The notes under the pieces were generated by a model. The model worked only from the letters and a program-made list of their open reading frames with translations. It did not search any database and had not been told where the DNA came from. Shown here one piece after another: positions 52,948 to 55,288 of a DNA stretch of 64,000 nt; position 1 is the first letter of the stretch; every line of letters starts with the position of its first letter. The DNA is taken from NCBI GenBank assembly GCA_018266685.1, contig JAFDZY010000255.1:1488-65487 (forward strand), given 5' to 3'. Origin of the DNA: Bacteroidota bacterium. Lineage in GTDB: Bacteria > Bacteroidota > Bacteroidia > Flavobacteriales_F > PHOS-HE28. The translations under genes and the position numbers were made by a program.

Positions 52948-54087
52948 ATGGCCATAGAAAGCATCACCCCCCAACTCGAAAAGCTGGTTCCCGAAGCTGC
53001 GGACTTCCTCCCTTTGCTCGGTACCGACTACATCGAATTCTACGTGGGCAACGCCAAGCAGGCCGCCCACTTCTACAAGACGGCCTTCGGCTTCCAGAGC
53101 TTGGCGTACGCCGGCCTGGAGACGGGCGTGAAGGACCGTACCAGCTACGTGATCGAGCAGGACAAGATCCGCCTGGTGCTCACCACGCCGCTCACGCAGG
53201 ACCACCCGATCAACGACCACCTGCGCAAGCACGGCGACGGCGTGAAGGTGATCGCCCTGTGGGTGGACGACGCCACCAAGGCTTGGGAGGAGACCACCAA
53301 GCGCGGCGCCAAGAGCTACATGAAGCCCACGGTGGAAAAGGACGCCGACGGCGAGGTGGTGAAGAGCGGCATCCACATCTACGGTGACACGGTACACCTC
53401 TTCATTGAGCGCAAGAACTACAAGGGCACCTTCCTGCCGGGCTTCAAGCCGTGGAAGAGCACTTACAACCCCGGCCCCACCGGTCTGAAATACGTGGACC
53501 ACATGGTGGGCAACGTGGGCTGGAACGAGATGAACCCGTGGGTGAAGTTCTATGAGGAGGTGATGGGCTTCGCCAACGTGCTGGGCTTCGACGACAAGGA
53601 CATCAGCACCGAGTACAGCGCCTTGATGAGCAAGGTGATGAGCAACGGCAACGGCCGCATCAAGTTCCCCATCAACGAGCCGGCCGAGGGCAAGAAGAAG
53701 AGCCAGGTGGAGGAATACCTGGACTTCTACAACGGTCCGGGCGTGCAGCACATCGCCGTGGCCACGGACAACATCGTGAAGACCGTGCGCGACCTGATGA
53801 GCCGCGGTGTGGAGTTCCTCAAGGTGCCCAGCACTTACTACGAGGGCCTGCTGGAACGCGTGGGCCCCATCGAGGAAGACCTGGCTCCTTTGGCCGAGCT
53901 GGGCATCCTGGTGGACCGCGACGATGAGGGCTACCTGCTGCAGCTCTTCACCAAGCCGGTGGAGGACCGCCCCACGCTCTTCTTCGAGATCATCCAACGC
54001 AAGGGCGCCAAGAGCTTCGGCAAGGGCAACTTCAAGGCGCTGTTCGAGGCGATCGAACGGGAGCAGGAAAGCCGGGGGACGCTATAG
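52948..54087 (+). CDS. hppD: 4-hydroxyphenylpyruvate dioxygenase
   Basis: Two VOC-fold halves, with the HIA..T, Q.F and [20 protein letters not shown] signature C-terminus. ATG at 52948. Confidence 0.93.
54003..54087 (+). repeat. direct repeat, left copy (native 3' end of hppD)
   Basis: 85 bp, 79/85 identical to 55204..55288 by manual alignment. Confidence 0.9.
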
Positions 54088-54987
54088 GTGCTTAGACTTG
54101 CCGTCTGTGAAATGAGGTTTCCGGTAGACCAGACAGTCCAGCAACTCCTCAACAAGAGGCTCGAGGAGTTGGAGAAGCACTTCGATGCGGATGTGCTTTC
54201 ATACTTCGGACCAATCGCCGATGGGAATGAACAACTCTTCCTTCAGCTACTAGAAGACCTCTCTGCGGATCCCGCCAAGCGGAAGAAGCTCATGGTCGTT
54301 TTGACGACACCCGGTGGTAGTGCGATCGCCGTCGAACGCTATGTCAACATGATCCGGCATCACTATGATGAATTGGATCTTCTTGTTCCCGATTACGCGT
54401 ATAGTGCAGGCACTATCTTCTGTATGAGCGCGGACAACATCCATATGGATTACTACTCGGTGCTCGGACCCATCGACCCCCAAGTCCTGAACAAAGACGG
54501 CAAGTGGGTCGCGGCATTGGGATACTTGGATAAGGTCAATGAGCTGTTGGAGAAGGCTCGTGAGAAGAAGCTTAGCCAAGCTGAATTCCTTATTCTGAAG
54601 GACATTGACTTAGCGGAGTTGCGCGGATATGAGCAGGCCAAGGCCCACACCATCGACCTGCTCAAAAAGTGGTTGGTGAAGCACAAGTTCAAGAACTGGA
54701 CGACGCACAGAACCAATCCGGTACTTATTGGCCAAGCCGTCACCGAGGACCAAAAGCTGGCTCGTGCTGAAGAGATAGCTGCCGCGTTGAGTGACAACAC
54801 CAAGTGGAAGACACACGGCAGGCCGATCAATCTGGAGTCGCTGAAGGAGTTGCGCCTGGAAATCGAGGATTACTCGTCATCCCCATTTGGTCGTCGCGAA
54901 CTCGTAAGGGAGTACTCCTTGCTGATGTTCGACTATATCCGGCGAAACAGCTTCACCAGTTTCATTCACACTAGACACTTCATTTGA
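54088..54987 (+). CDS. Clp-fold serine protease of the SDH / S49-like family
   Basis: LMVVLTTPGGSAIAVERY....VPDYAYSAGTIFCMSADNIHM matches the ClpP/SppA-fold pattern. The track start is a GTG immediately after the hppD stop; an alternative ATG lies at 54112. The block has lower GC. Confidence 0.65.
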   Translation: MLRLAVCEMRFPVDQTVQQLLNKRLEELEKHFDADVLSYFGPIADGNEQLFLQLLEDLSADPAKRKKLMVVLTTPGGSAIAVERYVNMIRHHYDELDLLVPDYAYSAGTIFCMSADNIHMDYYSVLGPIDPQVLNKDGKWVAALGYLDKVNELLEKAREKKLSQAEFLILKDIDLAELRGYEQAKAHTIDLLKKWLVKHKFKNWTTHRTNPVLIGQAVTEDQKLARAEEIAAALSDNTKWKTHGRPINLESLKELRLEIEDYSSSPFGRRELVREYSLLMFDYIRRNSFTSFIHTRHFI

Positions 54988-54989
54988 GC

Positions 54990-55202
54990 ATGGAACAGGA
55001 CAAACTCTCCAGCCAACTTGGTCAGCTTCTCAAGGCAGAAGAGAATCGCCTTGGCCAAACAGAGGAACGCCTCATGCTCATCGAAGCACTTGAGGAGTTC
55101 AAGAGATTGGTGGAAGAGGGCATGGTGAAGCCACGCGGGAACACCCTGCTGCCGATGGACAAGCGTTTCGTTGAAGTGGTCTTGTTCAATTCTGCCATCT
55201 GA
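54990..55202 (+). CDS. small helical hypothetical protein (partner of the protease)
   Basis: 70-aa charged ORF that follows the protease gene almost directly (stop 54987; ATG 54990, or a TTG at 54984 that overlaps the stop). Its own stop abuts the right direct repeat. Confidence 0.5.
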
Positions 55203-55203
55203 T

Positions 55204-55288
55204 GGGCGCCAAGAGCTTCGGCAAGGGGAACTTCAAGGCGCTGTTCGAGGCGATCGAACGGGAGCAGGAAAGCAGGGGGACGTTGTGA
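55204..55288 (+). repeat. direct repeat, right copy (orphan hppD 3' end)
   Basis: Encodes [27 protein letters not shown], identical to the native end. All six nucleotide differences are synonymous or a stop-codon swap. Confidence 0.9.

Follow-up and report, generated by a model that had tools for sequence, protein, structure and literature searches.

The 64,000-nt stretch of Bacteroidota DNA analysed here (assembly GCA_018266685.1, contig JAFDZY010000255.1, positions 1,488 to 65,487), called the window in what follows, carries at the end of hppD a 1.1-kb cassette of two open reading frames (ORFs), which encode a predicted Clp-fold serine protease and a small partner protein and are enclosed between two copies of the last 85 bp of hppD. 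We regard it as probable, with moderate confidence, that this cassette reached its site by displacement of the 3' end of hppD, that it spreads by homologous recombination and that it plays a role in phage exclusion or addiction. The pair constitutes a candidate new module that is very widespread and also occurs on plasmids and in prophage immunity regions. An earlier note on this DNA, made from the sequence alone, had drawn attention to the cassette and its repeats; the origin of the duplication, which it did not address, is the more informative part.

The duplicated end of hppD and comparable insertions

The two copies of the hppD end, one in frame with the gene and the other orphan (Table 1), are identical at 79 of 85 positions, share an identical block of 44 nt and encode the same 27-residue peptide. 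All six differences between the left and right copies are synonymous (GGC/GGG, CGG/AGG and, for two of them, CTA/TTG) or replace one stop codon by another (TAG/TGA, again two). The probability that six random substitutions keep both the peptide and the stop of the repeat is 2e-4, and such silent-only differences argue against a fresh duplication that drifted. No other repeat of comparable length lies within 8 kb of the duplication. The GC content of the insert (54088-55203), 51.7%, is lower than those of hppD (61.5%) and of the window (58.8%). At the right junction, the stop of the partner ORF ends at 55202 and the right copy begins at 55204, which leaves 1 nt between them. The repeat and its silent differences, the lower GC of the insert and the position of the second stop at the right repeat had all been described in the earlier note and are borne out by direct comparison. 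The start that it proposed for the first ORF, a GTG directly after the hppD stop, fares less well: the GTG at 54088 is indeed open, but homologues and gene callers start at the ATG at 54112, from which the protein begins with MRFPVD, aligning to the homologue consensus MKPxVD. This ATG is almost certainly the start of the protease.

No promoter-like or terminator-like site is seen in the spacer that separates hppD from this ATG. As these 24 nt are too short for a promoter, the cassette would be promoter-less and co-transcribed with hppD by read-through. At the other end, an ATG at 55202-55204 overlaps the stop of the partner (TGATG) and would open a 28-codon ORF (55202-55288) that covers the orphan.

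According to the mechanism proposed here, the incoming DNA would have comprised the 3' portion of a related allele of hppD (the left copy, with TAG) followed by the cassette. On the left side, it would have recombined with the resident hppD via homology; on the right side, the junction would have formed 85 nt short of the stop codon of the resident gene. The tail of this gene (the right copy, with TGA) would have been pushed downstream and would survive as an orphan, while hppD would stay intact and the cassette would be read through from it. The resulting block would hold both homology arms within one conserved housekeeping gene, the left arm being hppD and the right arm the orphan tail. It could enter any relative possessing hppD by double crossover, whatever lies downstream, and recombination of one copy with the other could also remove the cassette without scar. 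The cassette would need no recombinase of its own, and none was called within ~6 kb either side of it. The locus does display an intact gene with what appears to be the end of a foreign allele, a cargo, and an orphan resident end at the native junction.

The hppD loci of relatives, which the earlier note had suggested comparing, support an insertion. The four closest hppD lineages found (96, 90, 88 and 86% protein identity) all have an empty site, with a different downstream gene in each. In 73 other genomes, the 146 immediate neighbours of the pair represent 146 different Pfam families, none of them common to more than 4 neighbours; the commonest are restriction-modification (RM) methylases and helicases, IS1595 transposases, Fic proteins and integrases. 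Together, these empty sites and varied neighbours indicate an insertion and not an hppD operon.

Two further cassettes are found at the hppD stop. In the locus L099, whose protease shares 77% amino acid identity with that of the window, the cassette starts 12 nt after this stop. In L100, the protease is 91% identical and the whole cassette 81% identical at the nucleotide level; an hppD tail with TAG is followed by a spacer homologous to that of the window (GAGCTTAGACTTGCGGTGTGAG), by the cassette and by a right copy with TGA. Since the TAG stop and the homologous spacer are common to the window and L100, the left copy is read as cassette-borne. The TGA of the right copy of L100 overlaps the ATG of an unrelated next gene, like the end of a gene in a native operon, and the right copy is for this reason read as the displaced tail of the resident gene. 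Thus, we infer that the left copy arrived with the cassette.

Another locus, L085, matches the window except for one base from ~53560 to 55243 and is ~16% diverged upstream; in this diverged part, it resembles another, empty-site lineage. This is suggestive of a mosaic that would have arisen by recombination inside hppD. Two sequences of 1.1-1.2 kb consisting of the cassette only (L086 and L087) were considered as possible circles and rejected, as their ends lie in the identical repeat core and correspond to assembly breaks.

The other side of hppD is also variable. Comparison of the window (51700-52950) with L088, L091 and L092 shows that the slot between hmgA and hppD contains Fic-domain genes, a DUF4238 gene or a 321-aa membrane protein, the latter as in the window. 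This variability among relatives suggests that both flanks of hppD are hotspots for accessory genes.

Table 1. Features of the hppD and fcl loci, in coordinates of the window.
Feature	Position	Strand	Evidence or remark
hppD, 4-hydroxyphenylpyruvate dioxygenase, intact, TAG stop	52948..54087	+	TIGR01263 1e-132; length conserved in relatives at 96-86% protein identity
Left copy of the hppD 3' end: last 27 codons and TAG, in frame with hppD	54003..54087	+	
Spacer, 24 nt, from the hppD stop to the first ATG of the cassette	54088..54111	+	
Predicted SDH-type ClpP/SppA-fold serine protease, 291 aa	54112..54987	+	PF01972 5e-19; phrog_11747 6e-55
Partner protein, 70 aa, motif F..LV..G.xKxRG[YN]xL...FN	54990..55202	+	Homologous alignments, position after the protease
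Right copy: orphan hppD 3' end, TGA stop	55204..55288	+	
Intergenic DNA, originally 3' of hppD	55289..55404		Reaches the stop of the convergent gene
Gene of a beta-propeller protein sorted by the type IX secretion system, convergent	55405-56943	-	
fcl 3' end, first copy	30188-30288	+	
Antitoxin	30347-30562	+	
PIN toxin	30559-30993	+	
Orphan fcl 3' end	30999-31099	+	

Duplicated flanks are not restricted to hppD. In each genome, the 430 nt upstream of the module were aligned to the 430 nt downstream of it. Of the 70 genomes in which this comparison could be made, 10 have significant flanking direct repeats. Control placements within these loci gave 3 matches in 1298 (Fisher 1.6e-11), all three of them from one tandem array in L006. 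The repeats are 30-205 nt long and consist of a different local sequence in each genome. For example, the repeat is the end of an sdhB-like gene in L012, the end of a comM-like gene in L047, the last 50 nt of a gene, up to and including its stop codon, in L074 (49/50 identical) and a terminator hairpin in L078 (29/30 identical); the repeats of L078, L008 and L019 are non-coding. The codon differences between the copies are mostly silent, with synonymous to non-synonymous ratios of 4:0 in the window, 8:2 in L012 and 1:0 in L074, L047 being more relaxed (6:9). In L012, the right copy is continued by 55 nt that remain from an older protease gene, and in L026 (3840-6493) a ~130-nt direct repeat present three times (at 3840, 5144 and 6382) delimits the module and a second cassette, whose 289-aa product is, by eye, an Mrr-like restriction nuclease; a 745-aa protein follows. 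This remnant and this triple repeat suggest that insertions stack.

The array in L006 (480-2110) is non-coding, made of about six 253-nt units and located upstream of a purine-nucleoside-phosphorylase-like gene. In L047, the two copies (518-661 and 1906-2049) consist of an orphan, HLAEAIQYRSLDR, and of an in-frame copy, EQFTEAIQYRCLDR, which is the more derived of the two. The residues of the orphan, HLAEAIQYRSLDR, are those that we take to be the canonical C-terminal consensus of ComM. That the orphan is less derived than the in-frame copy is the opposite of what is expected of a decaying relic.

The same layout is found in the window with another cargo. At the end of fcl (30188..31099), a toxin-antitoxin (TA) cassette with a PIN toxin lies between two 101-nt gene ends that are 87% identical, in frame and have the same stop. 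The claim of the earlier note that the protease cassette occupies the same kind of site as TA cassettes therefore holds, and this second case indicates that the process is not encoded by the cargo. Tentatively, this could be extended to a general strategy, in which small selfish or defence cassettes would dispense with an integrase and use the tail of a housekeeping gene and its orphan as homology arms; in an extreme version, the orphan would itself be translated (from TGATG) and act as a third component of the protease system. More generally, the allelic copies on both flanks suggest a way in which cassettes that lack a recombinase colonise conserved gene ends, stack and leave without scar. 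In practice, an orphan gene tail that is in frame, mostly synonymous and located within a few kb downstream of the gene is a possible search signature for selfish or defence cassettes, useful where defence islands are hard to recognise.

The protease, its partner and their genomic context

The product of the first gene matches PF01972 (SDH-type ClpP-like proteinase) with 68.8 bits, above the curated threshold of Pfam (31.3), and NCBIfam NF047768 with 75.9 bits, below the equivalog cut-off of 250. On these scores, it is classed as a member of the PF01972 family and not as the named equivalog. It also matches phrog_11747, an unannotated phage family, and its homologue in E. coli bears the RefSeq name 'SDH family Clp fold serine proteinase'. 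The family is known by name only. Its AlphaFold2 model (predicted local distance difference test score, pLDDT, 85.6; predicted template modelling score, pTM, 0.80) has SppA (3rst/4kwb), 1510-N (3viv/6m4b) and ClpP as top Foldseek matches, all with a probability of 1.00, and the predicted fold is ClpP/crotonase-like. No chain was matched when the PDB was searched by sequence with the profile of the protease. In 24 diverse homologues, Ser98 (in YAYSAGT), the TPGGS loop, Lys141, Asp122, His199 and His235 do not vary; Ser98 is the predicted nucleophile and TPGGS the putative oxyanion-loop motif. The SDH/S49-like Clp-fold protease announced in the earlier note is thus confirmed by the family match and by the model. 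The serine and the lysine of the putative catalytic dyad, whose lack on alignment the earlier note had named, together with a missing phenotype, as evidence against an addiction or defence role, are both invariant.

The best structural matches of the protease are SppA (family S49, e.g., SppA of B. subtilis) and the NfeD 1510-N stomatin protease. The serine and the lysine, ~43 residues apart, resemble the Ser97/Lys138 dyad of 1510-N. Unlike these enzymes, the cassette protease has no match in the PDB at the sequence level, no membrane anchor and no stomatin partner, and it possesses an extra helical C-terminal region of ~150 aa with invariant Trp, His and Lys.

The protease and its partner are a strictly conserved unit. 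Near the stop of the protease gene, mostly at -13 to +18 nt, an ORF of 60-101 aa is present in 79 of 80 species-representative genomes, the sole exception lying on a contig that stops 66 nt beyond the protease gene. Homologues of the partner align and share its motif (Table 1), with 12-33% identity to the partner of the window, and sequence change is much faster in the partner than in the protease. It is nearly invisible to single-sequence search, with only 3 matches in 1.84 billion representative proteins. No Pfam family was found for the partner and no TA family for either protein. Matches of the partner profile to designer pentatricopeptide repeat (PPR) proteins were rejected as an artefact of summing over repeats, no single stretch passing the threshold. 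In the same way, the partners from E. coli and Rhizobium could not be joined to the family profile: the similarity is not significant and is limited to the motif and the position.

Neither protein matches any model of PADLOC-DB 2.0 at E <= 1, and no paper on the protease-partner pair was found in the literature on the PF01972/SDH_sah family and on ClpP-like defence. That the two ORFs form one cassette, and that their pairing is not recognisable as a described system, as the earlier note had put it, are therefore both upheld.

The protease has matches in more than 6,000 protein clusters. Among the matches listed, those with 58-68% identity come from metagenome-assembled genomes of Bacteroidota, Planctomycetota, Ignavibacteria, Nitrospirota, Cloacimonadota, Fibrobacterota, Spirochaetota and others. 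A scan of GTDB species-representative genomes gave 368 confirmed matching stretches from many phyla, and only distant relatives were found in the collection of sequenced phages. Of two pattern scans of JGI metagenomes, one gave no locus and the other a single one (L153), which belongs to the same lineage (99.4%).

Judging from its context only, the pair is most likely a phage-exclusion, abortive-infection or addiction module, in which the protease would be the effector and the partner an inhibitor, a sensor or a substrate. A 46%-identical protease followed by a 56-aa ORF is present in 20 of 5426 complete genomes of E. coli. Three of these loci were inspected, two of them in chromosomal prophages and the third in a lambdoid region of an IncI2 plasmid. 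In all three, the pair is downstream of a CI-type repressor, of which two types are represented, and it lies between cI and N where N is annotated. Furthermore, 46 viral contigs of IMG/VR carry the module, and an S24/HTH CI-type repressor is encoded by one of the two upstream ORFs in 20 of the 37 non-redundant loci, with adjoining Cro-type genes. The slot after CI is a hotspot for exclusion genes expressed by the lysogen, such as rexAB and bstA (PMC8585504). The module is located after a ubiquitin-like defence operon (multiubiquitin/ThiF/DUF6527) on a Rhizobium plasmid and adjoins the Mrr-like nuclease cassette in L026, whereas its chromosomal neighbours are modestly enriched for RM, Fic and insertion sequence (IS) genes. 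The pair is thus enriched in the immunity slot of prophages, and modestly so next to defence genes.

A precedent is IetAS, whose toxin is a serine protease and which is both addictive and anti-phage (PMC13069673). Besides, direct repeats of 85 nt should readily delete the cassette, and its survival through 19% divergence would be easier to explain if its loss were penalised. The homologues in lambdoid prophages of E. coli, such as the protease WP_021518647.1 with its partner WP_167851737.1, make a defence or addiction role directly testable.

Weighing the explanations of the duplication

Several points weigh against displacement and against the proposed role. About 85% of the genomes have no flanking repeat around the module, and no clear microhomology is seen at the right junction in the window. 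Compared with the closest empty-site allele, each copy of the hppD end has 5 differences of its own, and these are mixed in pattern; picking the native copy from the alleles of relatives proved unworkable. Moreover, both copies share lineage-specific codons (Glu-Ser in the window, Glu-Gln in L100), which implies gene conversion, repeated refreshment by recombination or selection on the orphan. The apparent mosaic L085 may be an assembly chimera: the switch occurs where hppD is most conserved, and there L091, a relative, is identical to the window over 110 consecutive nt. As for function, the chromosomal neighbours are mostly housekeeping genes, only a handful being RM, Fic or IS genes, and no model of PADLOC 2.0 matches either protein. 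The addiction or defence-type module suggested in the earlier note is thus sustained by the CI slot of prophages and by the neighbours in Rhizobium and L026, but not by the PADLOC search nor by the chromosomal neighbours, among which defence genes are a minority.

Integrase-type islands are classically recognised by direct repeats that restore the frame where the target gene ends on its 3' side (reviewed for integrative and mobilizable elements, IMEs, and cis-mobilizable elements, CIMEs, in PMC5704250). The two copies could thus be the attL and attR sites of a site-specific integrative element that has lost its integrase and is moved in trans by a resident integrase acting at the hppD 3' end, and a single crossover in the 44-nt core would fit, as the left GGC and the right AGG/TTG match the closest relative. 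This explanation is nevertheless unlikely, as no recombinase is encoded in the cassette or within ~6 kb, and the right junction, 1 nt after the stop, leaves no room for arm sites. It would also require a different integrase and a different att site each time, because the same cassette is flanked elsewhere by unrelated repeats of 30-205 nt, and it would have to account for an unrelated PIN cassette with the same architecture at fcl. A related candidate, a CIME or another element moved by an integrase, was rejected for want of a recombinase within ~6 kb and of a common att core across insertions. Transposon or IS duplication was discarded as well: the length of the repeat is not fixed (85 nt at hppD, 30-205 nt at other insertions), and there are neither terminal inverted repeats nor a transposase. 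An integron cassette was rejected too, given the 1 nt between the last stop and the repeat and the lack of end inverted repeat, of attC and of nearby integrase. A diversity-generating retroelement does not fit either, the differences (C/G, C/A, C/T, A/G, A/G, G/A) being in either direction and not adenine-specific, with no reverse transcriptase gene.

The variable length of the repeats (30-205 nt), their near identity in L074 (49/50) and L078 (29/30) and their non-coding nature in L008, L019 and L078 would rather suit a target duplication made in situ, by fill-in of a long staggered break or by local tandem duplication, of which the orphan would be a decaying relic. At hppD, this is quite unlikely: the six differences are all silent (P = 2e-4), and even with selection on the functional copy and a drifting relic, our own arithmetic gives an estimate of ~0.003. 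Furthermore, in L012, 8 of the differences are synonymous against 2 non-synonymous, and the TAG on the left and the TGA on the right have been kept between lineages whose cassettes have diverged by 19%.

The orphan could also be a third expressed gene, coupled to that of the partner, whose 28-codon product, the C-terminal peptide of HppD, would be a bait, a decoy or a substrate of the protease. An ATG overlaps the stop of the partner in both the window and L100, a 12-nt deletion in L100 is in frame, and in each lineage the peptide equals the tail of the genomic HppD, although these tails differ between lineages; in addition, according to the title of entry 4kwb, SppA-type proteases bind C-termini in their active sites. 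However, the window and L100 share one ancestral junction and are not independent, the orphan of L074 has no usable start codon, and refreshment by recombination or gene conversion accounts for the silent differences without expression. This explanation is very improbable.

Finally, the pair is co-oriented with hppD and abuts it, and three cassette lineages are found at the hppD stop, as would be expected of a housekeeping or tyrosine-catabolism accessory operon belonging with this gene. A conserved operon of this kind, which the earlier note had named as a possible refutation, is effectively refuted itself: the pair is missing from the four closest hppD relatives, its neighbours differ almost everywhere (146 Pfam families for 146 neighbours in 73 genomes, none in more than 4), it occurs in prophage immunity regions and on plasmids, and its GC content is 10 points under that of hppD. 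Displacement of the 3' end remains the explanation that we retain as probable.

Known systems and other cassettes of the window

Both 3'-end displacement and protease-based defence or addiction modules are already known kinds, and displacement at rhs, CDI and T6SS effector-immunity loci was reportedly described by Jackson in 2009, among others. As far as literature and PADLOC searches reach, the pairing itself, its prophage-immunity context and a tail-duplicating insertion without integrase are undescribed. Displacement of 3' ends, or C-termini, has been proposed at rhs and type VI secretion system (T6SS) effector loci, via homology-facilitated illegitimate recombination (Kirchberger 2017, PMC5361080). 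The rhs, contact-dependent inhibition (CDI) and T6SS loci resemble the present insertions by their conserved upstream anchor, the arrival of a new gene end with its cargo, the orphaning of the old end and the lack of integrase; repeated events build arrays there, as in L012 and L026 here. They differ in that the replaced end of hppD is synonymous, leaving unchanged a housekeeping protein that is not a polymorphic toxin. Furthermore, the two-gene cargo is here a module in its own right, housekeeping genes of various kinds are targeted, and the orphan could serve as a second homology arm for further spread.

The islands moved by integrases and the cis-mobilizable elements share with the cassette repeats that restore the 3' end of the target and flank a foreign cargo of lower GC. 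However, the cassette has no recombinase and no room for arm sites, and its repeats at other insertions are unrelated. The minimal mobile elements of Neisseria (PMC3787668) are likewise devoid of integrase, polymorphic for presence or absence and dependent on homologous recombination in their flanks; they lie between two different flanking genes without duplication, whereas both arms of the cassette come from one gene.

Comparable modules are also found among phage-exclusion systems. The module occupies the same position as rexAB and bstA (PMC8585504), directly after CI, in E. coli and in many prophages of IMG/VR, and rexAB also comprises two genes; there is no relationship of sequence or fold, the putative effector of the cassette being a predicted ClpP/SppA-fold protease. 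IetAS associates a serine-protease toxin with an ATPase antitoxin, and thus resembles the pair by a protease effector with a regulatory partner (putative here). In CalpL-CalpT, a protease likewise acts with a small cleavable partner. The folds of these two systems (subtilisin and Lon, respectively, against ClpP/S49) and their partners are different.

Besides those at hppD and fcl, the window contains other small cassettes. Downstream of the PBP1a gene (12269-14536), the region 14600-16910 (minus strand) is an array of small TA-like cassettes. It includes two diverged copies of a pair of 119-aa and 74-aa genes (14727-15129 and 16061-16580, 79-87% nucleotide identity) and a PIN gene (15418-15786), which are separated by a 34-nt perfect palindrome, GCAGTTATCGCTCGCGTGTCGCGAGTGATAACTGC, present four times (15191, 15999, 16642 and 16853). 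It resembles an integron-like array or one delimited by repetitive extragenic palindromic (REP) sequences; the palindrome does not fit the attC consensus. Next to it, the region 17400-21000 is a low-GC island (46-49%, against 59% for the window), with a DUF805b RNA motif (RF02914, 37.6 bits) at its left edge (17487-17521, plus strand).

Another TA pair (48550-49244, minus strand) associates a DUF6364 antitoxin with a PIN_3 toxin, whose stop overlaps the beginning of the gene of an epimerase (47600-48553); no duplication was seen in the flanks of this pair. Lastly, two tandem 32-nt GC-rich palindromic units, GTAAGGGCGCGAGATCTCGCGCCCCAACAAGA, lie at 29284-29348, between a gmd-like gene (28048-29256) and fcl, and may be a terminator or a REP-like element.

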